A stretch of 64,000 bases of DNA, from the NCBI GenBank assembly GCA_965153455.1, contig OZ234493.1, forward strand, positions 14,560,213 through 14,624,212. Direction: 5' to 3'. A program made the position numbers and the translations under genes. The notes beneath the pieces were generated by a model. It was given only the letters and a program-made list of their open reading frames with translations. It did not search any database and was not told the DNA's origin. Below, one piece after another: positions 22,014-62,644 of this stretch. Positions within the stretch are counted from its first letter, which is position 1, and each line of letters starts with the position of its first letter. The DNA is from Sphagnum compactum (Eukaryota).

Positions 22014-22239
22014 ATGGAAACAGTAGTAACAACTTCAAGTCCTTCAAGTCTCAGGTGCAACAGCAAAAACGAAGCTGCAAATCTCAATGCGTCCATACAA
22101 CAACAGTAGCAGTAGGAGCAGGAGAGCCACAGCTACGACAATTGGGAGGAAGAGACAGCTACGAAGAAGAAGAAGCTCTTGGAGAAACAAACCCTGCCTT
22201 TCGGGGAGTTCTCGGCGGTTTCACACCGTCCATAGTCAC

Positions 22240-23012
22240 ACTTCCTTCCCTCTATTCCCCAAAATTGTAAACATGACCAACACTTCCCTTGTGCAGCACA
22301 ACCTCAAACGCTTCAGCCACATCTTCACAGTACAGGTAGCTTCGCACATTACATCCATCTCCATGGATGGGGAGGGGCTTCCCCTGGCCAAAAGAATGAA
22401 TGTGGGAATGAGCTTATCTGGGAATTGGTTTGGTCCATACACATTATTGCCTCGTCTGGTGATGACAGGCAACCCATATGAGCGGCCATATGCCATCACC
22501 GGCATTTCTGCACCAGCCTTGGTGGCTGAGTAGGGATTTGTGGGAAGCAGTTGCGATGCTTCATGGTTTCCAACAATTGCATCAGCCTCAGTCTCTCCAT
22601 AGACCTCATATGTGCTCACATGAATGAAGCGGTGGATAGTGCCTGTCACTTTGCATGCCTCCAGCAACACATGGGTCCCATAGATGTTGTTCTTTGTGAA
22701 CTCAATACTGTTGCCAAATGAGTTATCGACATGAGTTTGGACGGCAAAGTGCATAATGGTGTCAATACCCTCAGTAATGAGAAGGTAGTTCACAAGATCT
22801 GCACTCCCAATGTCACCTTTCACAAACTTGAAATTCTTGGAAGACTTGGAGGGCAACAGATTCTTCAAGTTGGAGCAATAATCCAACTTGTCTAGCACCA
22901 CAATCTCGTAATGTGGGTAGTTGCGCATCAGTCTGTTGGCAACATGAGATGCAATGAATCCTGCTACACCAGTTATCAAGATGCTTTTGGGAGTGTATGT
23001 GGCTTCCCCCAT
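22240..23012 (-). pseudogene. RHM1: Captured 5' fragment of UDP-rhamnose synthase (N-terminal UDP-glucose 4,6-dehydratase domain)
   Basis: YTPKSILITGVAGFIASHV, LDKLDYCSNLKNL, THVDNSFGNS, PTNPYSATKAGAEM, GNNVYGPNQFP; frameshift near 22380 and truncation near 22250. Confidence 0.92.
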
Positions 23013-23575
23013 TATGATGATGACCTCTGCTTCTGCAAATCTGCTTGATATTATTCAGTAAGAAAAAATTCTTCTCTATCAGAATTTTGTGGGCACAACA
23101 CAAGAGTAACAACAAAGTTCGGTGGAGCCACAGACGGGAAATAGAGAGGAAGAGTGTAATTTGGACTCCCCTGCAAACAAGGAAGATCAAGACCAAGCTC
23201 TCTTTAGTCCTGGTATAATACCTTACAAGTACACCTGCTTTTTTCTGGTATTGTCTGTCATAGGGACCGAATGTGAGGGACAACAAAGCGAGCAATATCT
23301 GCTGCTCACGACTACTAATCCACAAGCTCCTCATTTCCAACTGAAGAGATTATGTGTCGTCATTATGAAAACATAAAATTTCGAACAATCAAGATGTTCT
23401 GAGTGAGTGAATGAAATGCGTTTCTTCTTCTTCTTTTGCTCTTTTTTGTTTTTGTGTTTTAGGGTGTAGGGTTCTGAAGATGAAGAATTCTTGGTGCTTT
23501 TGTTTATTAACAGTGTGGCTGATGGGTGGGTGGGTGGCTGTCTGTCTCTATCTAGTATGCCTTCTTGCTCGCCAG

Positions 23576-30600: not shown

Positions 30601-33600
30601 TATGTAATCCGTAACACTGGTTCCAGTTAAGTGCTATATGATGGTCAAACCTGTAGCTCAGTCTTTGCAAGATCCTAAGAGCATGTAAGAGAAGCCCGAA
30701 CATTGGAAAAGCTCACCAATTCTGTTTTTGATTTAAAACTCTTCGTACGTGCTTAAGTCAAAGAAGTTTGTTGTTCATTTGGTATCTTTGCTAATGAAAA
30801 AATTATGGGAGATTTATGGATTCAAATGGGAAAATTGAACGTCAAAGGTTCAATCTTGCTGCCACAACAATAGGAGGAAATGGATGGTTGTCCTTCATTC
30901 TGCATTTTCCAAATCGTATGACTTAGAAAGAAGGTTGTGTAGCCAAGTTTGTAAAACCAGTCCTATGTTATGGAGAAAAGGTCTAGAGAAGGTCCTAAAC
31001 TTTCTGTTGTGCATCCCAAAAAGTTCGGAAGTCCAAAGTCAATCCCTTGCTGTTGGTTGGGTTTAGGGAATTTTCTCTTCGTGTGCCCTTCTTCTATAGA
31101 AAGATCCTATCTGTCATGATTCATCACTGGATTACCTTAGTGATCCATATGTTCTTTCCATAGAACTTTTGGCTGGATACAAAAGAAAATTGGATTTCCT
31201 CTATAAAGTTATACCTCATGGGAAGGTGTTTTCTGAATTTCTTACCAAAAACTTTGTTGGTTGTCTTCAATGTCATCAGTCTTTATGTGCATGCCTTTTA
31301 TATGTAGCCCTATTTGTGTGATTAGGGTTGTTCATGATTGATAAGTTTGCCATACGAATCTCTGTTTTTTTGGAATTTACATGTCTCATGTTGACAATAT
31401 ATGAGCAGACTGTATGTTTTCCTAGCTTCTACCCATTCCCTATGTATAACGTGTTGTGTGTGTGCTTGAGAAAAGAAAGCAACATCAAAGAAAGCTCGGG
31501 TTGAAACCCCACCACTTGTCGATATGGTGAATGCCACTAGGCTACAAAAGACCACATCGGCAACAGTACAAAGTCGCAAGCATGGTGGTGACTTTGCAAG
31601 GTGCAATAATCAGGCATGTAAACATGGTGTTGGAAGTTCAGAATGCACATGGAATGCTGGACAATGTGGGCACACAAGACAATGGAGTTCTTGCCAAGTG
31701 TCACAATGTCCTAATTGGAAGGTAAGATTGAGCCCTGGGCACAAGGGACTTACAAACTGTTGTGCCACTTGTGGAAGGGCTCCAAGCAACATGTATGAAT
31801 CAACATGGGGTGAAGGAGGGGGTGTGTGTGATCAGGGGCTATGTCAAAGGGTGCAACCACATTCACCCATGGGCGGGCAAGCACCAGACATGGCCTTGGA
31901 CAATGAAATAGAAGTAGATGCCCAGCCCAAGGTTTTCGCTGAAAGGGGTATGCAACGACGAGCTTTAAAGCGAGCTATAGAATTTGAAGCCCAAGAACGA
32001 AAGGAGAAAGGCTTGCCAGGCCATAAGGTGCAAGTGACAAGGCATGGCAAAATTGATGGTGCATGTGAAGGGAAGGATGCATGGGATGGTGCGATTAGGT
32101 CGCTAACACCTCGGATTTTGAACATGGCAGTGGTTAGGGTTACAGAACAGGACCCTGTGGACATGGCTAGACTCCGGTTGCAATTGGATGGGAGATTTGA
32201 ATATGTAGGTGGTGAATTAAGTGGGGCTGGCTTTAGGGATTGTGTAAGGCGATATATGAAAGGAGAAAGAGCACGCTTAAAAAGAAAGTATGCACAGAAA
32301 GGTGCCAAAGCCTGCCCACTTGAAGTGGACCGAGAACAATGGGAGAAATTAGTGACATATTGGCAACAACGTGAGACCAAGAATAAAAGTGAACACATGG
32401 TTGGTGCAAGAGGGGCAGTTGCAAATGTAAGCCACCTTGGGCGTGGTGGTAAGGCAGCTATAGAAGCAAAATTGGCAAGTTAACCCTAAAACCCTACTCC
32501 GTTGTGATGGCCAAATGGAAATTACAATATGTTGAAGTTATTATGCACTCACATGCCACATACAATGCTGAGCACTGAATGATGTCTGAAATGGGTGAAT
32601 GCAGAAATCCAGGCATCGCCGAAGCCCATCAATATCTGAGATGGCTGCTGTGGGACTAGAATCTAGTGGCACACCTGGGTACCCAGTGAGTTTTCCTAGC
32701 TGTTTCATTTGTCTTTCCTTGTCCTTTCCCTTTCTGTCTTGGTTATGGTTGATTGAGGGGATGTGATTAGCACTAGTATTGCATGGCCTACCTCAACCAG
32801 AAAGTCTGCTAAAGCAGTACCATCATCAGCAGAAGCTGGTGTAGCCTTTCCAAACAGCTTACCAAGTGACATCCCCTCACTGCTTTTACTAGTATCTGTC
32901 CTAGAAATGATATCATCAGGTACTGTGTCACCTGTGGCATAATGACCCTGTGGATTCAAGCTCCATAAGTCTGTTGTTTCATGCAATTACTTCACACTTA
33001 AGCTTCCAGTGGTGGATGAAGTATCATGTACTGCTTCATTCACAATTTTAAGTATTTCAACACTGGTTTCCTTAGCAGTATCTCTTGAATCAAAATCATC
33101 GGCTCCAGTATTCCAGATCCTTCATTCTGTGTTTTCCTGATATCTCATAATTCTCCTGTTGGTGCATATGTGGTCTCCAATCTTACCCAATCTGGTATTC
33201 TGAATTTTGTTTTTCTTTTGTTTCTTGTCTTCCCTTGTTTGGTTCTTTCTGTGGCTTCCTGAGGAAGTGTTAGCCTTGCTGTTTCTTCTTCATCGTGAGA
33301 TTGGAAATTTCTCTATTCTCATGCTTTTGGAATTGCGATTTAATTTGGTTTGGTTGCATTCTTTTGAGTGCTCTCCTTATACAAAGGTTTAACATATCGG
33401 ATCTGAATGTTAGAGAAAAATTTATAACAAATACTGGTTTTGGTAGGTTGTTTTTAAGTCCCATTATTTCAATACTTTTTGTCAGTTCAGTGGAACAACC
33501 ATTCACCTTGGATATATTTGGTTGAAATAGTAAGGATAAGTTGAGTTCTATGTTGTCAATGTAGCAGAAACTTCAGATTTTATCTTCTTAGCTAGATTTC

Positions 33601-36600
33601 CTCGTAGATAACTTGTTCCTCATATTTGGTCAGTTAGTCCTTAAGCAACCATTGGATGCCCACTGAGTACTGATTATGCAATTGTGAGCCATGGATTATA
33701 GCTCAACAATTAGTTAAGCTTTAATTCCGTAATTTTCCTTAGTATTAATGATTTGAATGCTTATAAGCCTCCAAGTAGTGATTATTAATAGTTGAATCAG
33801 CTTTTGTGATATTTCTAGGCATATAGTACTTCTTTATTTCAGTTGATGTAGCTCTTAATCAGTTAAGCACCTAGTAAACCTTTTAAAGTACATTATCCCT
33901 TTTATGTTGCAGAGAAGGGAAAGGGGATGTAGAATTAGTTGTGATTTATTGATATATAGGGAATACAAGCCCATAATTAACACTAGCATTCCGCCATGAC
34001 AAGGTTAAGTTAGTCTGTAGAAGAATCTTCAAGCACTAATGATGTACTTGTAAGATTTTTAGGATGTAGTCCTAATACATCTTTATTTAGTTTCACTTCT
34101 ATCAGACTTTTAAATAGAATCAAATCAAACTTAAGTATTAACATTTCCGCCTGAGTAACCTCAGGTGAATTACAACTGAATAACTAACTTAAAGGATAGA
34201 TCACAGTTGTAAAAAATCTAGGATGCGGCGAATGGTGCGAGCGAGGTACTCGGCTCGATGCTCCAGGGGAAGTGGGTTGATCGGGCCTCGTAGCCAACGA
34301 TAATGGCCATCACCAGGAACCCACGTTCGACAATGGAGACGGACATCATCATCTTCGCACTGGCACTCTTCAAACCTTTCTGGCGCGGCTCCACGAGCAG
34401 AAACAAACTCTAAATAAATTGCTAAAGCATGTGGGTTAGGGGACAGTCGACGATCCCATACCGAACGAGCGACTCGAGTACGCATCACTCTCCTGGGCGG
34501 TTCTTCTTCGCGCGGCCGTTGAGAAACATTCAAGTCGAGCGGTGCTTCTTCAAGCTCTTTTTGTTGTACGGGTGCGACTGGAGGATTTGAAGGCGTAGCG
34601 TCATCGTTCGCCATGACTAGTTGCACCTGCATCAACAAAAACCAAGAAGGTAGTACAAACAAGGTGGTACTTGCGTTCAAAAGGGGTCGAGGCCTTTTTA
34701 TTTAACAAGTTAGGGTAGGCGTAAGGTGTGGAAGTGACGGCGGAACCTTATCAAAACTCGAACACCCTAGATCTAAAGGATTCATCAAACCCTAAATTCA
34801 ACGGTGGATCTAAAAGTATGGGAGAGTTTTTTTTTATGCAAATTGTAATTCCAATTTACTATGTACTACATAGTTAATTAGTGCATAGTAAAGTAAATAG
34901 GAAAGGAATATCAAAGGAGTAAATGTTACACGGAAATGTTACTTCAACCATTGAATTAGTCAAGTAAGAACTCAAGGACTCTTCCTTGTTACTACCGATA
35001 ATTTATCCTAGTAGTTAGTTACTTGAAGTAATTCGGATGAAGAAGTAGGATGTGAGGGTCAACGGACGAAAAAGATATGGATCAAGCTCAAAAGACCTCA
35101 TCAAGATATCCAAGATAAGGGGGAGGTTGGATCCTCCAAATCCCATTAGTCATGAGGATTTTTCATCCTCTTTGATTAGAGGATGGAATATCTCTTGTGT
35201 TTCATTGGGCCCAAGGATTCTCATCCTAATTTCAATTGTATGGCCATTCATTCTCAAATTCTCATTGGCCCTTGAAGGATGAGGAGGCCATTGATTGGTG
35301 CAAAAGGATTTCAAAGCTTTCATTGGACAAGGGGAACAAGCTCAAGGAAGGTCATGGAGGCTTACCAAGGGAGAAGGCATTGTGTGTATGGGAAAAAAGG
35401 AGAAGAAGAGGAGAATGAAGTGTGAGAAAGGTTGTTAGTTCTTGTGTGTGGGAGGTGTTCATGGAAAGGTTATGAAAAAATGAAGCATGGAATGGAGTTG
35501 TGTGTAGCAAGTAATCGTAGTGAAGCCTCTGGACTTTTGGTTTAAGTAATTGTTTCTTTCAAATCCACCGTTGGATTTGTGTCAGAATTAGATTAATTTT
35601 AGTTTGAAAGGTGTAGAAGCTCCTCCCAAAAATTCAGCATCATCGGCTTTGCTGTGAGGGAGTTACAAGTGTTGGAAGTAGAGGGTGTTGAAGTGTTTTC
35701 CATGGGATGATTTCGTAGTGAAGCCTCTGGACTTTTGATTTAAGTAATTGTTTCTTTCAAATCCACCATTGGATTTGTGTCAAAATTAGATCAATTTTAG
35801 TTTGAAAGGTGTAAAAGTTCCTCTCAAAAATTCAGCATCATCGGTTTTGCTGTAAGGGAGTTACAAGTGTTGGAAGTAGAGGGTGTTGAAGTGTTTTTCA
35901 TGGAATGATTTCCATGGGGAAGCCTCTGGACTTTTGGTTTAATCAATTTTTTCTCTCAAATCCACCGTTGGATTTGTGTCAAATTTGAATCAATTTTAGT
36001 TCAAAAGGTGTAAAAAGCCCTCCCAAAAATTCAGCTTGATCGGGCTTTTTGTAAGGGAGCTACGCGGGTTGGAAGTAGAAGGGGTTGTAGTATCTGTTTT
36101 TTCTTCAAACTAGGCAAGTGGCTCCTAGCTCCAAGGCTTAAATCTAGATCAAAAAACATAAAATAAAAAACTTATGAGAGTTGTTTAAACATGGCTCCTT
36201 TTGTATTAGCTTCCAACTCCAACATCCAATTCCTTTCGTCAATTTACCCCCTCAGTAGATATTAGAGTAATCCTTCTCTGTTTCCGCGCCCTATTTGATT
36301 TGCGCACATAGTGCATCTTCATTTTTGTATCCCTACAACCCTTGACCACATATCTGCCCATCATCAGACGACTTCAAGATAAATGGGTGAACGCTCTAGA
36401 TAACAGCAAGTCTATATCTATAGGAAAAGCCCCGATCAGGAATTCCTTGTTAAGGTGAGATCTTTTGGCAGTCTTTCAAAAGGAGGCCGTAGGAAATCTA
36501 TTTTGGTCCTTGATGATCAAATCTCGACCAAACATCCCGCTTTTTTTGCAGAGCTCCTATGCTTGTCGGCTAAGGTAAAGATAGCTGATCATCTCACTTA

Positions 36601-39600
36601 GTAGTCCACCAGTTTTCGAATTTTCAGAAAATTACCACGGCAGGCGTTTGGTATTCCTAAAAAAACAAACACAAAGCAATCGATTATGGATGGCTTCCTT
36701 TGTGGTCGGTATCAGTTTATTTACTGATGCCAGGCGGTTAGCCAAGTCCATTATTCTGTCTTTACAAAATTTTATAGGATTTCGTAGATGGGTGTCTATA
36801 GCTTTATAGGTAAAGAGCCCTTTATTCTGCAAATTGATACCTAGTTACTTTTACGCGTTTTCTGAAGTTTTGGCATGAAAATTGAAGTCTTTGCATGCCT
36901 TATCCATGGTACGGATAATACTTTCATAGGCGGTTTTCACTGACAGAGGATATCTACAAAATCCACCTATCATCGCAGGCATAACCATAAAAAAGATCAT
37001 TAAAAAAACGTGAGCTATTATTAACACATTATAAAGCTGATGATTTCCACCAAGAATTTGATTGCCAGGTTGTGCTAATTCTATACGAATTAGTACTGAA
37101 AAGCATGTACCCATTACTCCAGCAATGGCACCGAAAATACAATATAAAGTGCCTATATCTTTGTGGTTTATAGAAAACAGCCATCTTTGTGCAAAATTGT
37201 TCATTTTATAACCCCATCTTTCAATAATATCATGCTTTGTTAAACTAATTTTGACTGATGTTCTCGTAATTTGGAAAAGCGAAATTCGTCACAAACTGTT
37301 GGAGTTGGAAGCTAATACAAAAGGAGCCATGTTTAAACAACTCTCATAAGTTTTTTATTTTATGTTTTTTGATCTAGATTTAAGCCTTGGAGCTAGGAGC
37401 CACTTGCCTAGTTTGAAGAAAAAACAGATACTACAACCCCTTCTACTTCCAACCCGCGTAGCTCCCTTACAAAAAGCCCGATCAAGCTGAATTTTTGGGA
37501 GGGCTTTTTACACCTTTTGAACTAAAATTGATTCAAATTTGACACAAATCCAACGGTGGATTTGAGAGAAAAAATTGATTAAACCAAAAGTCCAGAGGCT
37601 TCCCCATGGAAATCATTCCATGAAAAACACTTCAACACCCTCTACTTCCAACACTTGTAACTCCCTTACAGCAAAACCGATGATGCTGAATTTTTGAGAG
37701 GAACTTTTACACCTTTCAAACTAAAATTGATCTAATTTTGACACAAATCCAATGGTGGATTTGAAAGAAACAATTACTTAAATCAAAAGTCCAGAGGCTT
37801 CACTACGAAATCATCCCATGGAAAACACTTCAACACCCTCTACTTCCAACACTTGTAACTCCCTCACAGCAAAGCCGATGATGCTGAATTTTTGGGAGGA
37901 GCTTCTACACCTTTCAAACTAAAATTAATCTAATTCTGACACAAATCCAACGGTGGATTTGAAAGAAACAATTACTTAAACCAAAAGTCCAGAGGCTTCA
38001 CTACGATTACTTGCTACACACAACTCCATTCCATGCTTCATTTTTTCATAACCTTTCCATGAACACCTCCCACACACAAGAACTAACAACCTTTCTCACA
38101 CTTCATTCTCCTCTTCTTCTCCTTTTTTCCCATACACACAATGCCTTCTCCCTTGGTAAGCCTCCATGACCTTCCTTGAGCTTGTTCCCCTTGTCCAATG
38201 AAAGCTTTGAAATCCTTTTGCACCAATCAATGGCCTCCTCATCCTTCAAGGGCCAATGAGAATTTGAGAATGAATGGCCATACAATTGAAATTAGGATGA
38301 GAATCCTTGGGCCCAATGAAACACAAGAGATATTCCATCCTCTAATCAAAGAGGATGAAAAATCCTCATGACTAATGGGATTTGGAGGATCCAACCTCCC
38401 CCTTATCTTGGATATCTTGATGAGGTCTTTTGAGCTTGATCCATATCTTTTTCGTCCGTTGACCCTCACATCCTACTTCTTCATCCGAATTACTTCAAGT
38501 AACTAACTACTAGGATAAATTATCGGTAGTAACAAGGAAGAGTCCTTGAGTTCTTACTTGACTAATTCAATGGTTGAAGTAACATTTCCGTGTAACATTT
38601 ACTCCTTTGATATTCCTTTCCTATTTACTTTACTATGCACTAATTAACTATGTAGTACATAGTAAATTGGAATTACAATTTGCATAAAAAAAAACTCTCC
38701 CATACTTTTAGATCCACCGTTGAATTTAGGGTTTGATGAATCCTTTAGATCTAGGGTGTTCGAGTTTTGATAAGGTTCCGCCGTCACTTCCACACCTTAC
38801 GCCTACCCTAACTTGTTAAATAAAAAGGCCTCGACCCCTTTTGAACGCAAGTACCACCTTGTTTGTACTACCTTCTTGGTTTTTGTTGATGCAGGTGCAA
38901 CTAGTCATGGCGAACGATGACGCTACGCCTTCAAATCCTCCAGTCGCACCCGTACAACAAAAAGAGCTTGAAGAAGCACCGCTCGACTTGAATGTTTCTC
39001 AACGGCCGCGCGAAGAAGAACCGCCCAGGAGAGTGATGCGTACTCGAGTCGCTCGTTCGGTATGGGATCGTCGACTGTCCCCTAACCCACATGCTTTAGC
39101 AATTTATTTAGAGTTTGTTTCTGCTCGTGGAGCCGCGCCAGAAAGGTTTGAAGAGTGCCAGTGCGAAGATGATGATGTCCGTCTCCATTGTCGAACGTGG
39201 GTTCCTGGTGATGGCCATTATCGTTGGCTACGAGGCCCGATCAACCCACTTCCCCTGGAGCATCGAGCCGAGTACCTCGCTCGCACCATTCGCCGCATCC
39301 TAGATTTTTTACAACTGTGATCTATCCTTTAAGTTAGTTATTCAGTTGTAATTCACCTGAGGTTACTCAGGCGGAAATGTTAATACTTAAGTTTGATTTG
39401 ATTCTATTTAAAAGTCTGATAGAAGTGAAACTAAATAAAGATGTATTAGGACTACATCCTAAAAATCTTACAAGTACATCATTAGTGCTTGAAGATTCTT
39501 CTACAGACTAACTTAACCTTGTCATGGCGGAATGCTAGTGTTAATTATGGGCTTGTATTCCCTATATATCAATAAATCACAACTAATTCTACATCCCCTT

Positions 39601-42295
39601 TCCCTTCTCTGCAACATAAAAGGGATAATGTACTTTAAAAGGTTTACTAGGTGCTTAACTGATTAAGAGCTACATCAACTGAAATAAAGAAGTACTATAT
39701 GCCTAGAAATATCACAAAAGCTGATTCAACTATTAATAATCACTACTTGGAGGCTTATAAGCATTCAAATCATTAATACTAAGGAAAATTACGGAATTAA
39801 AGCTTAACTAATTGTTGAGCTATAATGCATGGCTCACAGCAATCATTTTAGTTTCACCTCTTCACATATGAGTTCAATATCTTTCAGGTGCCTTATGAGG
39901 TCTAATGTTTGTTCAATGCTCCCAAGGACTTTATTGGCAGTGGCAAACACTCTAATTCATTCCCCAAGCTTAATTGAACTTTTAATGGCTTCTCTTCAAA
40001 AAAGGTTTCAAATCCACCAGAGGCTAAAGCAGAGATCAAAATTGTTTAAACATCCAGCCAAGAGATCAAATCTGATGCCCCTGCAACTTTGAAAAGACTT
40101 CAAAGTTGTAGAGACTGTAGATTTGAACTCTTGGTTAGATTTCAGATTAGACAATTTATTTCTTTGTTTTGGCTAACGTGTGTATAGATGTTGCATCGGT
40201 ATCCCCTCCCTCGGGTACAAATTCTGCGGTCTATTTAGCTAATCTCTTCACATAGGAGCTCCTCTTTCTTTTTTAGGTTTTTCCTTTTCATTTCTTATTT
40301 CATTTTTGATTTCTTTTGTTTTTTTGTTTTTGTGTAAGTGGTGGTTCGTTTTGCAGTACCAGCAGCTATTCAGAGATGATGATAGGTTGATGGCAGCTTT
40401 GCACAGAATCAAGGAGACCTGCATTTTGTGTTTTATTATTCTTTCTAGTGCAGCATTTGCTGCAGTTCTTGTTTTGTTGCTTGCGGAATTAAAAGGTCTT
40501 GTGTACATGATCTCCTTGCATTTGAGAATTTTGGAACTTTGGGTCTTTCTGGATGCCCGCTCTAGTGGCTGCTTCTTTTGTAGAGTTTGGAATATATCAT
40601 GGTGAGAGATCCTGGTATTCCTTTTCCAGCTCGCGGCACTAGCTTGCAAGTGCCACTCGCCAGCTGAATGAATCGAGCTACTCATGATTTGCAGCCCGGC
40701 TCAATCTGCAACCGCTTGCATTGATTGAACCTCATAGTTTCTGATTTGCTCTAGACTAAATATTCATTTTTATTTCTGCCTTCATGAGTTTGATAGTAAT
40801 TAGTAAGTGGAATATTTATGTTGTCATTGTAAGGATCTTTTGATGGGTTAATTGGGCAAGCATCACAATCTCCCAGTTTGTTTTCTCGAATGACTGCCAT
40901 TGAAAAGAAGCTGCCAGAGATGAGTGGCCAAGTTTCCCAAGTTCTTGAAGGGATGGATAAATTGAATGCTAAGGTAAAAGATTTCATGCAACAATTGCTA
41001 GCATGTCGAGAAGATGGTGTGAATGTGAGAATCCCAAAAACTGTTGCAGCCACTGTAAACATTGAAGAGGTAGATGTTCCTTCAAGGACTGGATCCCCTG
41101 AGATTCTTGGTGTTGCAAAGAGCCTGCATGAGGTTCTTCATTCAGATCATGATGGACGAGGGTCAGGCACAACAGTGGTTGAGAGTGCCACACAATTAGC
41201 TCCAAAAGCCGATCATATCTCTACAGGAAAAGGGGTGGGCCAACAAGTGGATGGTGTTGTCCCTTCACATGTCCCCAACTATGTGTTAGTAGGAGACGAT
41301 ATCCCCAACTATGTGCTAATAGGAGAGGATATGGGGCAGAATCCTAATATGTCAGGGAAGGACAAAGAAGTTGGAGTAGCTTGCAAAGGCGGTGACTGTG
41401 TAGATGAGAGCAACCGCCAACGCCCACCCTCAAAGGTACGATCTAAGTGCCCAACATGACCAACACATTAAAGTTAGAGTCTACGAAATGCTATGGATTG
41501 TTCAATTGTGGGAGTACTCTTGCAGTGTATATCAAATGTGGCATATGTGTGGGATGTTGGGAATTGCACGAACTACATGGCTAAAATAGGACATAAGTTA
41601 GATTGTGGAAGCTAGATTTGTTGTTCTTTCTGTTACAATCTAAAGATTAAGAACATACCCACATTGTTTGGGGTCTAGGTGCATACAAGCTTCAAGGGAA
41701 ATCATTGACATGGTTTCACATTTGTATTCATTGATGGATTTGGTGTGGCAGAAAGTGCAAAAAAAGGTAGCAAGTATGCCAGCACCTGAAAGAGGTGTGA
41801 ACAGTCGGCTACGCTCTAATATTGGTGCAAGGGTGGGGAATGTAGGAGAGAAGGCAAGGCAACAGGTAAGTTAATACCAACATGCTCTTGCGTATCTATG
41901 ATTTATAACTAGGGAACACAAATGCCCTGTTTGACACAATGTTGTAACAAAAATTCCATTTTCCTAAATCGGTTGCTCATGGTAAATTGAATGAAGGTTC
42001 TTTATTGGTTGATGTGCAGTTTAAAGTAGGGGAAGCAATTGTCTTATGTAACCTTGATGCGGAGGTTGTAGCGAAGGGGCTGATAACAGGTGTTGGAGGA
42101 CAAGGATGTGTCCACCATGGGGTGCCAGTCAAGGAGTCATGGTTCCGAGTCCAGTTAAGTGAAATTGTGGCAGGTAAAGGCAACACCCCGTTGTTGGTGC
42201 CAAATGAGAATGATGATCCCCCACAATGTGTGTTAAAGGATGTAATAGGTTCAAGCACTGTATGGGAAGGTCGTCTAATGCGAAAGCATGCTTAA
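27655..42295 (+). CDS. CACTA TnpA-like multi-exon gene (exons approx. 27655-27833, 28258-28573, ~31476-32475, ~32604-32685, ~40834-41434, ~41752-41865, ~41980-42295)
   Basis: Ptta/En/Spm-like [20 protein letters not shown]...SHLGRGG and Tnp1/En/Spm-like C-terminal VVAKGLITG...HHGVPV...WFRVQL...PLLVP...IGSSTVW; lies between CACTA TIRs. Exon borders partly inferred. Confidence 0.72.
29300..31300 (-). mobile_element. Degenerate LINE (L1-like) ORF2 3' remnant in a TnpA intron
   Basis: Broken minus-strand ORFs ([14 protein letters not shown]...[15 protein letters not shown]) resembling a LINE RT C-terminus; no TSD found. Confidence 0.35.
34201..34614 (-). CDS. Orphan 137-aa ORF in the left arm (identical to 38907-39320)
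   Basis: [12 protein letters not shown]...RRILDFLQL*; CpG-rich, uninterrupted. Confidence 0.55.
   Translation of the reverse strand: MANDDATPSNPPVAPVQQKELEEAPLDLNVSQRPREEEPPRRVMRTRVARSVWDRRLSPNPHALAIYLEFVSARGAAPERFEECQCEDDDVRLHCRTWVPGDGHYRWLRGPINPLPLEHRAEYLARTIRRILDFLQL
35516..36090. repeat. 198-bp tandem repeat x3 in the left arm (mirror ~37431-38005)
   Basis: gaagcctctggacttttg...aaatccaccgttggatttgtgtc unit starting at ~35516, 35714 and 35912. Confidence 0.9.
36225..36958 (-). other. Spacer segment of uncertain origin, probably mitochondrial (possible group II intron ORF remnant)
   Basis: A long frame broken by stops continues from cox1 (…[28 protein letters not shown]…); identity is inferred only. 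Confidence 0.4.
36959..37204 (-). pseudogene. cox1: NUMT: first 82 codons of mitochondrial cox1, plus 92 bp of presumed 5' flank to 37296
   Basis: [82 protein letters not shown]. Confidence 0.97.
37297..39838 (+). repeat. Right 2,542-bp LTR-like arm (TGTTGGAG...GGCTCACA)
   Basis: TG...CA termini; TATA-like ctatatat and aataaa at ~39562-39576. Confidence 0.93.
38907..39320 (+). CDS. Orphan 137-aa ORF in the right arm
   Basis: ATG in gtcATGG context just after a pyrimidine-rich acceptor-like ttttgttgatgcag; open to TGA at 39318-39320. Confidence 0.55.
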   Translation: MANDDATPSNPPVAPVQQKELEEAPLDLNVSQRPREEEPPRRVMRTRVARSVWDRRLSPNPHALAIYLEFVSARGAAPERFEECQCEDDDVRLHCRTWVPGDGHYRWLRGPINPLPLEHRAEYLARTIRRILDFLQL

Positions 42296-59344: not shown

Positions 59345-61332
59345 TTACCTAGTTGCATAAATGTGAAGGGGAAGCCGAGCAATACCAATTGCTTGTAGTG
59401 AAATGGCTTTTGGAGTGGTGACACCAAACACTTCACCCATGTCAATGTCTTGAGGATTTTCTCCTAGTGGTAATTTCCAAGTGAAACTATGAAGAAGTCG
59501 AGCCAATCCCATTTGCACTGTTATCAAACCCAAAGGCAAACCTGCACACATTCTTCGACCGCAACCAAATGGCAATAATTCAAAATTTGTGCCTTTCAAA
59601 TCAATGTCACTTCCAACAAACCTTTCGGGATTAAAATCCCAAGGATTATCATAAGCAGATGGATGTCGATGAATAGCCCATGCATTAATAAATATGCGTG
59701 TTTTTGCAGGTATGTGGTAACCCCCCACTTCACAATCTTGCATGTTTTCATGTGGTATCAACAAAGTGAGTGGAGGATGAAGGCGAAAAGTTTCTTTTAC
59801 AACAGCTTGAAGGTATTCTAGTTGAGGTATGTCATCTTCATCTACTACACGTTCATGTCCCACCACATGGTCCAATTCATCTTGGAGTTTTTTCATAATT
59901 TTTGGTTTTTTCAAAAGTTCCACAAATGCCCATTCTATTGCTGTGTTGGAACTTTCAACGCCTCCAAGCAACATATCCTGACCAAAACAAGATCATCACA
60001 TTAAAATATGCATCAACAAGTTGTTGAACACCATTAAAACTTGGTTTTCTTACATGCAAATCTTTTGAACCACACCTATGTACTTCACATAAAAGATCAA
60101 TTGATATGCAAATAAATTCATTATTTAATATGCAAATATGTCTTTAATTTTTTTGAAATTGCAATCTACATGAGGTAAAGTAAACATTACGAGAAGCATG
60201 GCCTTGATCTTGTTGTCATCAAGTCTATCACCAGAATCTTCCATTGGAGGAAGAGACAACAACACATCAACCAAGTCTTTTGATCCATCTGCATGTTTTT
60301 CATTCATATGATCATGGATTATCTTGTCAAAAAATTGATCCATTTCCATAAAAACTTCTCTTGCTTGAGGTATAAGCCCTTGGAGATCAAATGGTTTCAA
60401 ATATGGAACAAAATCACTGATGTTGAAAGTCCCCCCTAAACGCATCAATTTGGTCATAAAATCATCGAACTCTTCATGTTTGTTGTTGTAGAAATCATCT
60501 TCAATGAAATACCTTTTTGTGAACAACATTTGTGTCATGATATTCAAGATGGTTTTGTGTAACAATGTTTTTATGTTGATTGGTTTTGCATCCTGCAATT
60601 TATTCAACATCACAATCAAATCATGCGTGATTCCTCAAGTTCAAAAAAACTATTTTTTTCCTTTGTTGTGTATGTTCAACTTGACAAACAATTAATTTTA
60701 GGTTTGCTTATATTCCTTAGAGTTCACAATTCTTTCAAATTTGTGTCACAACTTGGAAGTGCAATGAAAAATATGTATGAAGTTACAACTCAAACCTTGC
60801 ACTGCTCAAAAATTTCATGCATCGTGCAAGAAAACTCTTCATCTCGAATTTTCTTAGAGGCTTGCAACCTTTTTGTAGTGAATAATTCTGATGTACATAA
60901 TTTTCGCATTTGGCGCCAATCATCCCCATAAGGTGCCCATGCAACGTCCTTTCCACCATATGTGAACATATCAAGGACCACACTTCTAGGTCGTGTTGCA
61001 AACACTAGATCATGCTCTTGTAAAACCTCTTTTGCTCGATTTGGAGATGAAATCACAATTGTGGAAATTGACCCAAGCTTGAGCTCCATTACATCACCAT
61101 ACTTTTGTGATAGTTTGTAAAGGGAAAGATGTGGGAGTTTACCAAGAAGTGGAAGATTACCCAACACTGGCCACATGGGAAAAGGGCGTGGTGCTTTTTT
61201 TAGTTTTGTGTGACAAAAAAAAATCTTGAAAATGGAATGCAAGATGATCAAGGTTGCAATTCCTACAACTACAACCATCAACCCTTGGGTATGTGTAAAT
61301 AATTTGATCCATATCAAAACAATATTTGCCAT
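59345..61332 (-). CDS. Cytochrome P450, CYP71 clan (A-type), ~523 aa; exons 61332-60796, 60592-60191, 59977-59345
   Basis: N-terminal TM, WPVLGNLP, WRQMRK, KETFRLHPP, PERF and heme motif FGCGRRMCAG; two phase-0 GT-AG introns. Confidence 0.93.
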
Positions 61333-62644
61333 GTGTCACAAGGGTTTTTGCTTTCTCAAGTGCTTTAAAGAACAACAAGCTATGAACAATGAGAATGGAA
61401 ACCTTCTCTTTGGTGGAAGCTAAAACTATGTCTAATGGCTTCTACTTTTTCAAACAATGGTTCAAACAACTACAAGTTTTATGCAATGGAAATCTTCTCT
61501 TTGATGGAAGCTAAAATTATTTACAATAGTTGTAACATGAACCCATATATATACAACCTAGTGGTTGGGACTTATGGACCATGCTAGTTGTCATCTAGAA
61601 TAATCAACCTAGCTATGGTGGGCATCATTGTGTACATATGCCACCAAAAAGAAGGGGCACCTATTCTTTTCAAGATTCAATTCCCATCACTACAAGTTTT
61701 GAGGATAAGGTGGACCAAGGTGAACACGGGTTTAGGTCCTTTGGAAATTTAAATTTAGTCCCAAGAAAAAAAATTGGAATGTCCAAATTTGGCAATTTAT
61801 TTTTTTCATTATTTGAATAGTTTGGAGTTTTTACTTTTGATTTCAAATAAGGTGAACTAGGTTTTGGTCCCCTTATGGTGACCAAAATTTAAATCTCTAT
61901 AAAATTAATAATAAATAATAAAAATCATTTATACTTGCAAAATGAAAAAACATCATTTTGAGAATGTTGAGTCAAATCATCGTTGACCACATTAAATGAC
62001 ATTTCAAACATGATGCCAATATGAAAATTGATGTAAATTTGGTGTATGTTAACAACCCTAACAACTATGTAAACATGGTGCATCATGTTTATTTTAACAA
62101 TCTTAGTGGTAATCCATAATCATGTTCATTTTCCTTGCCAACATATATCATCAATTATCATTTAATTTTTTCCATATCAAACATTTAAAAAGAAGAATTT
62201 TGAATCTAGCATGGTTATATTAAGGGGTCCAACAAATGTGATTCTTAAATTTGGACATTAAGATCTTTGTTCAATTTTATGTTGTGAACTTGAAATTACA
62301 AAAGATAAAACAATCTTAATGAAATAAATATGGGCATAATAGTTAGTAAAACACATGTGTTAATAGAATGGATCTTGTTTGGGTAGTATTTAGATGTGGT
62401 GTAGAGTCCACCAACATTGAGTAAATAGATGATATTCGAACAAACAAATTAGTAGAAGAAATATTTTTGCACATTTTAACAATGATATATAAATTCACAC
62501 ATTGCACACACACATGCACACCTTTCATTCATTTTGTTGTAGTTAAACAATGTAAAGAATATGCATTGAAATAGATAACTTAAATATGAACACATTGTGT
62601 GGATAGCCTTTAAAACACTATTTGACATGTTCACCAATGTTCCA

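Follow-up and report, generated by a model that had tools for sequence, protein, structure and literature searches.

A composite insertion with inverted arms

The subject of this report is a composite insertion in the moss Sphagnum compactum, in which two long inverted copies of a dispersed repeat enclose DNA of mitochondrial origin. It lies in a stretch of 64,000 nucleotides (nt) of plant nuclear DNA (assembly GCA_965153455.1, contig OZ234493.1, positions 14,560,213 to 14,624,212 of the forward strand), which is referred to here as the window. A repeat search found a single inverted pair in the window, with arms at 33683-36224 and 37297-39838, each of 2,542 nt, and a spacer of 1,072 nt between them; the 2.5-kb length of the repeat rules out chance as the source of the pairing. 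Read inwards, each arm opens with TGT... and closes with ...ACA. The outer ends of the composite read TGTGAGCC... on the left and ...GGCTCACA on the right, and GCAAT stands directly outside both. An earlier note, made from the letters of this DNA, had described the inverted 2,542-nt arms, the 1,072-nt spacer with part of the mitochondrial gene cox1 and the direct GCAAT flanks, and all of these are present as claimed, the start of cox1 being recovered with the Pfam COX1 profile at E 8.6e-12. Compared base by base, the two arms differ by one mismatch, G at 33694 versus the complement of 39827. The derived base is that of the right arm at 39827, as the letter of the left arm is present in 120 of the 121 family matches listed (see below). 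When the window was compared with itself, no further copies of the arm or of the spacer were found elsewhere in its 64 kb. The coordinates of the features are collected in Table 1.

Contigs of four public sequencing runs (X1, X3, X14 and X15) were placed on window positions 31600-37400. Runs X1 and X3 represent one organism in two studies and X14 another organism, while the X15 data come from RNA and bear the label of a moss metagenome, and their contigs carry no strand or end information. One X1 contig follows the left flank up to 33682, where it passes straight into 30 letters that equal window positions 39844-39873, which makes it an empty site with one GCAAT. In X3 (record 28) and X14 (record 10) the match likewise ends exactly at 33682 and the contigs run on. 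The depth of the left flank, measured as summed contig depth, is far above single copy, which shows that the flank is a repeat in its own right and makes it most likely that the empty site belongs to a paralogue of the host element. Paralogous or not, the empty-site contig gives the pre-insertion sequence, and its single GCAAT indicates that everything from 33683 to 39838 entered as one unit with a duplication of 5 base pairs (bp). Insertion of the whole unit with a single 5-bp duplication had been proposed in the earlier note, along with an empty site of this kind as the place to look for it, and the X1 contig bears out the proposal.

The spacer is a mosaic: its two pieces lie apart in the mitochondrial genome, as the contigs that match them continue differently in all four runs. 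Positions 36227-37300 match contigs at organelle-like depth, similar within each of the three DNA runs, include the start of cox1 and are surrounded by nuclear genes and repeats, and the segment therefore qualifies as a nuclear insert of mitochondrial DNA (NUMT). Before 36227 the mitochondrial contigs of X3 and X15 become unlike the window; at 36955 the contigs that contain the cox1 exon go on into the next cox1 codons and not into the other piece; and past 37300 the contigs of all four runs carry unlike sequence. At each joint the neighbouring parts overlap by 2-4 nt, namely by CAAT with the left copy of the repeat (4 nt), by TA at 36955-36956 between the two pieces, and by TGTT at 37297-37300 with the right arm. 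The mosaic build and the short overlaps indicate filler that was captured by end joining at a break rather than the cargo of a transposon, and they also speak against reverse transcription of one cox1 RNA as its source. NUMTs and mosaic insertions have been reported to arise by end joining, and organelle DNA to be captured at double-strand breaks (PMC2567098, PMC3698918 and PMC6215612, available sections). The earlier note had offered, as an interpretation, that integrases may carry organelle DNA into the nucleus; the composite does not open such a route in general, as the joints of its two non-adjacent pieces, with overlaps of 2-4 nt, look like the product of ordinary end joining.

The spacer differs from the mitochondrial contigs in at least 13 of approximately 1,074 positions. 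The differences are mostly transitions and are the same in all runs, including the RNA run, which identifies the spacer as an aged nuclear copy and not part of a chimeric read. RNA editing was considered as the source of the differences in cox1 and rejected, because the letters of the RNA run equal those of the DNA runs. A single unspliced cox1 transcript, or an exon with its intron, was rejected as the source of the whole spacer, because the two pieces continue into different sequence in all four runs. At five differences among those listed the window has A where the mitochondrial contigs have G, and all five lie within the right-hand 300 nt of the spacer (37008-37242); this apparent cluster may reflect strand-biased deamination near a former DNA end. 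No RNA family was matched over 33600-39900 (0 Rfam matches at E 0.1 or lower), and piece 1 of the spacer is also free of long open reading frames (ORFs).

Table 1. Positions of the parts of the composite insertion and of neighbouring features in the window (LTR, long terminal repeat; the A and B ends are defined in the text)
Feature	Position	Strand	Evidence
Left target-site duplication, GCAAT	33678..33682	.	Window letters; X1 empty-site contig with single GCAAT
Left arm: truncated LTR-like unit, reading from the A end (TGTGAGCC) inwards, without the last ~190-330 nt including the B end (...CCTCACA)	33683..36224	+	Inverted repeat, family alignment, contig depth
137-codon ORF in the arm (166 codons stop to stop, 34201-34701); mirror copy at 38907-39320, + strand (stop to stop 38820-39320)	34201..34614	-	ORF list
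Three tandem copies of a 198-nt sub-repeat in the left arm; mirror at 37410-38004	35515..36109	+	Repeat families D1 and D2, 77-94% identity
Left inner joint: TC (36225-36226) and CAAT (36227-36230) still family-like (...ATCCAAT); CAAT also begins the mitochondrial match	36225..36230	.	Family alignment, contigs
Mitochondrial piece 1, non-coding	36227..36956	.	Contigs at organelle-like depth in all 4 runs, unlike sequence on either side
Mitochondrial piece 2: upstream of cox1 and cox1 codons 1-82 (37204 down to 36957)	36955..37300	-	COX1 domain, contigs
Right arm: mirror of the left, A end outwards, with the one derived base 39827	37297..39838	-	Inverted repeat, arm comparison, family matches
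Right target-site duplication, GCAAT	39839..39843	.	Window letters and contigs
ORF with weak match to En/Spm-type transposase, just left of the insertion	31470..32483	+	PF03004, E 0.0021, below the curated cut-off
NAD-dependent epimerase/dehydratase gene fragment	22236-23054	-	Profile match
P450 gene split in two ORFs	59345-61335	-	Profile match

The repeat family of the arms

The arm belongs to a very abundant repeat, as judged from summed contig depth. In X14 this depth is approximately 1e5-3e5 over the arm, compared with 200-470 over the flank and about 2,000 over the mitochondrial part, and the depth of the arm is also raised in X1 and X3. The family was collected by scanning metagenome contigs with the last 21 letters of the arm, which yielded at least 120 loci with 121 matches and 118 flanks of the end marked by those letters. 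The members are single units of 2.2-3.0 kb with the ends TGTGAG...CTCACA. They start with TGTGAGCC, here called the A end, and finish with ...CCTCACA, the B end, which in a longer reading is ...GTGCAAGAATTCCTCACA; the terminal inverted repeat (TIR) of the unit is limited to the 6 nt TGTGAG/CTCACA. The sequence outside the A end differs in every locus listed, except for 13 pairs that are at least 99% identical and represent the same locus in different assemblies.

The 5-bp target duplication is perfect in 16 of 22 complete units (2,242-3,046 nt), has a single mismatch in three and is missing in the remaining three; in shuffled pairings a perfect 5-bp match arises by chance in 0.4% of cases. The three units that are not flanked by a matching duplication (L022, L079 and L111) may be products of recombination between copies. 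Both outer termini of the composite are the A end of this family, which normally makes 5-bp duplications, and the earlier claim that the same LTR-like end had been used twice is thereby upheld.

Both arms of the composite are truncated. Related copies run past the inner boundary of the arms by approximately 190 nt in one subfamily and 330 nt in another before they end in ...CCTCACA, and the inner ACA/TGT is therefore not the terminus of an element. The earlier description of the arms as complete has to be withdrawn accordingly. In most family units the sub-repeat listed in Table 1 is present in two copies, compared with three in the arm, and some A-rich motifs were seen by eye near 36158-36170.

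Solo LTRs of retrotransposons share several features with these units. TG...CA termini with a short terminal inverted repeat are present, and the target duplications fall in the range of 4-6 bp. Solitary TGTGAG...CTCACA units with 5-bp duplications give the picture of solo LTRs, and on these sequence features we infer that the units are probably LTRs. Among the at least 120 loci, no two direct copies of the unit were found to enclose gag-pol next to a primer-binding site and a polypurine tract, but each assembly would have merged the copies of such a constant joint into a single contig. The sole direct pair among the loci listed (L077) consists of unequal copies and has no primer-binding-site or polypurine-tract features. 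Terminal direct repeats within the complete units, as in a TRIM-like build, were not found either, and the unit-end patterns gave 0 matches in viral contigs (both ends) and 0 in prokaryote genome contigs (A end).

The ORF in the arm is matched by 1,264 predicted proteins of 132-169 amino acids (aa), all annotated as hypothetical; searches for a longer homologue, for a Pfam family and for a usable Atlas match gave none. The ORF is intact in 13 of 62 family copies. Its rates of change by codon position are 0.127, 0.074 and 0.134, and the synonymous fraction is 0.41 in its own frame compared with 0.17-0.33 in the other five frames. These values hint weakly at past coding constraint on the ORF, which would be unusual for an LTR.

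Neighbouring units of the family often stand back to back, A end towards A end, or one unit lies within another (L011 2342-3123, L029 266/267, L039, L005 and L071); the back-to-back arrangement is the opposite of that in the composite. In the flanks beside the A end in L097 / L102 and L086, motifs resembling those of the reverse transcriptases of other retroelements were recognized by eye in translation, which suggests that units have inserted into other retrotransposons.

Origin of the composite

The two arms break off at nearly the same point of the unit. Family similarity reaches 36226-36230 on the left and begins at 37297-37301 on the right, which places the inner breakpoints 2-10 nt apart and approximately 2,545 nt from the A end of a unit that measures about 2.7 kb. 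Where the left copy ends in ...AACATCCAAT, the family goes on with GCATGTT, of which ATGTT is complementary to AACAT, and TGTT are the first letters of the right arm. The near-coincident truncation points to a fold-back or palindrome origin rather than to two whole LTRs carrying cargo, and a fold-back at GCATGTT would yield the observed centre with a loss of approximately 3 nt.

These observations lead us to propose the following scenario. A partial linear DNA copy of the unit would start at the A end (TGTGAGCC...) and stop approximately 2,545 nt into the unit. It could then fold back on the inverted microhomology of 4-5 nt and be copied back to its own A end, the product being either one palindromic molecule or two sibling hairpins in which every open end is an A end. 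An integrase-type enzyme would attach a pair of A ends to the target at a cut staggered by 5 bp, which would give the single duplication of GCAAT. The hairpin tip or the palindrome centre could have been opened before or after insertion and resealed by end joining, with two unrelated mitochondrial fragments captured through overlaps of 2-4 nt. Later gene conversion from arm to arm, or homogenisation during assembly polishing, would keep the arms near-identical as the spacer drifts. From the pattern described above we infer that a fold-back took place, which type of enzyme acted, in what order the events followed and that the unit is a retrotransposon LTR, and we regard the scenario as a whole, a folded-back, truncated LTR-like repeat integrated twice by the same end and patched at its centre with mitochondrial filler, as about equally likely to be right or wrong. 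Self-primed hairpin products of reverse transcription have been documented in vitro (PMC6088434, available sections). The locus looks like a one-off aberrant insertion, a rare mistake of the retrotransposon insertion machinery and not a new kind of mobile element.

Several observations weigh against this scenario. Contigs bridging the inner joints, or the outer joints between arm and flank, are absent among the contigs listed. A constant internal neighbour, as expected where an LTR meets its interior, was seen beside none of the 118 A ends, apart from duplicates of the same locus, and none of the 25 B ends among the matches listed; because no copy was seen beside a constant interior, the signature of the ends is what carries both the identification as LTRs and any role of reverse transcription. 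The absence of a joint between LTR and interior is weak evidence against LTR identity, as the copies of a constant joint would be merged into one contig in each assembly. Outward-facing inverted pairs number 0 among the at least 120 loci, in contigs from short reads that could not assemble such copies. A strong hairpin of the TAR-like type at the centre of the palindrome is absent from the DNA folds of four family units (z from -1.0 to +1.8), which leaves the microhomology of 4-5 nt as the sole available means of folding back, and a match of this length could be a coincidence. Finally, the arms differ at 1 of 2,542 positions where the drift of the spacer predicts about 61 differences. Gene conversion between the arms, derivation of the spacer from an older nuclear mitochondrial insert, a recent fold-back or homogenisation by polishing are possible reasons for the mismatch between arms and spacer.

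The single 5-bp duplication and the use of the same end on both sides would also be obtained if two LTR complementary DNA (cDNA) fragments, broken independently and each retaining one A end, were integrated in a concerted manner and their inner ends joined with mitochondrial filler. In vitro, the two ends that an integrase joins can be alike and come from different donor molecules, and the mosaic spacer with its overlaps is of the filler type. Independent breaks at positions 2-10 nt apart in a unit of about 2.7 kb are, however, improbable by position (~1%), and all private differences from the family are common to both arms, so that we consider this origin, which amounts to the model of the earlier note with shortened arms, unlikely. 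Somewhat less likely again, in our view, is that the units are non-autonomous DNA elements moved by an integrase-like transposase, of the Ginger/TDD type or another, and that the composite is a fold-back derivative moved by cut-and-paste through its two identical ends. Integrase-like DNA transposons, too, can have TG...CA ends and duplications of 4-5 bp; each of the 22 complete units, like every end sampled, stands alone, and the widely predicted ORF of 137-143 aa has the raised synonymous fraction given above (0.41 vs 0.17-0.33 in the other frames). The terminal inverted repeat, however, comprises 6 nt only, and long arms occur only in the composite among the loci seen. Neither the units nor the DNA between the arms holds a transposase-like ORF, an integrase-like or other transposase gene was found in none of the composite, the units and their surroundings, and the pattern scans of viral and prokaryote genome contigs gave nothing. 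The alternative raised in the earlier note, a Ginger/TDD-like transposon with very long TIRs, fits poorly for the same reasons, as the relatives are single units with a 6-nt TIR and include 0 outward-facing pairs among the at least 120 loci.

An assembly artefact, whether from a chimeric or fold-back long read or from a mis-join within a high-copy repeat, would explain both the near-perfect arms (1 difference in 2,542) of a very high-copy family and the inner joints that none of the contigs listed bridges. A fold-back read, however, would mirror the flank too, whereas the left and right flanks differ and match the empty-site contig with a precise 5-bp duplication; moreover, the spacer is not palindromic, has at least 13 differences from true mitochondrial DNA, and short overlaps are present at all joints. 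We consider an artefact very unlikely on these grounds. The least probable of the explanations, by a narrow reckoning, is that a normal solo unit at GCAAT was rearranged in place by fold-back replication, by inversion, or by a second insertion followed by deletion. Inversions that arise by fold-back on short inverted microhomologies do occur where chromosomes break, and the spacer looks older than the duplication of the arms, both of which fit such a history. The right arm, however, stops exactly at the A terminus against the right GCAAT, where a fold-back copy would run into the reverse complement of the left flank, which is not the case, and a second insertion would add a duplication of its own.

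Known systems, significance and surroundings

The composite shares features with several known systems and differs from each. Its family resembles solo LTRs, and LTR-retrotransposon integration in general, in the TG...CA ends, the 6-nt inverted repeat, the length of 2.2-3.0 kb, the sub-repeats, the abundance and the 5-bp duplications, and the composite has the same 5-bp duplication as the family. Unlike solo LTRs, the composite is bounded on both sides by the same end of the unit, its two copies being inverted and truncated; paired LTRs, an interior, a primer-binding site and a polypurine tract, which would complete the likeness, are absent among the family matches listed. Foldback elements and transposons of the Ginger/TDD type have long inverted arms with internal sub-repeats, TGT...ACA tips and a duplication of 4-5 bp, and by this description the composite, with its long arms, sub-repeats, TGT...ACA tips and 5-bp duplication, is similar to both. 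In contrast to these elements, long arms are not a trait of the family, as 22 of the 22 complete units are single, and no transposase was found in the composite, the units or their surroundings.

A parallel to the proposed origin may be provided by self-primed strong-stop DNA, in which a nascent strand that begins at an LTR terminus folds back and is extended into a hairpin, the sole open end of which is that terminus (PMC6088434, available sections). Such a molecule would account for the two identical ends of the composite and for the common inner breakpoint. The self-primed product is described there as a dead end in vitro that was undetected in virions, and the available sections of that paper cite no integrated example. 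Unlike strong-stop DNA, the arm of the composite is 2.5 kb long, and there is no strong hairpin at the centre of the palindrome. With regard to the spacer, the two non-adjacent mitochondrial fragments with overlaps of 2-4 nt resemble organelle filler at double-strand breaks (PMC2567098, PMC3698918 and PMC6215612, available sections); the break differs in being the centre of a mobile-element palindrome and not ordinary chromosomal DNA. Taken together, the composite looks like a variant of known processes rather than a new kind of mobile element.

The composite can also be considered for what it may do. It is an inverted duplication of part of a high-copy element and, if transcribed, would give a long hairpin RNA directed against the family. 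In this it is similar to Mu killer, in which part of an active, high-copy transposon became duplicated and inverted in nature. It differs from Mu killer in having arisen by insertion with target duplication, and it is known here from its sequence alone. Hairpins of LTRs that result from head-to-head insertions have been proposed as triggers of silencing (PMC11624286, available sections), and a near-perfect long inverted repeat of an abundant family is a plausible source of silencing RNA. It is tempting to speculate that the locus preserves, as a naturally fixed trace, an aberrant product of reverse transcription, namely partial LTR DNA made by snap-back or self-priming, which an integrase inserted in vivo through the same LTR end twice. 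On this view the locus would now serve as a trigger of the Mu killer type and provide double-stranded RNA directed at a repeat family that is among the most abundant of the genome; we regard this combined notion as rather unlikely.

If the fold-back scenario is right, integration of the retroviral type is able, in a plant, to work with the same element end twice, and fold-back molecules from element replication that count as dead ends can reach a chromosome. Such behaviour is known in the test tube, but as far as we searched, no natural insertion of this kind has been described in the literature. Three themes of DNA repair would meet in one locus, namely the opening of a hairpin or palindrome, filling with organelle DNA and homogenisation from arm to arm. 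The main value of the locus lies in its being a natural record of same-end integration and a possible source of hairpin RNA.

The insertion lies inside another repeated element, as the contig depth of the flank, well above that of a single copy, shows, and the ORF with the weak En/Spm-type match stands just to its left (Table 1). Paralogues of the flanks of the composite were found neither in the window nor among the loci listed. Profile matches further away mark a gene fragment and a split gene, also given in Table 1. In the left flank, one 194-nt bin (33152-33345) has a summed contig depth 10- to 100-fold above that of its neighbours in all four runs, and another very abundant short repeat lies there.

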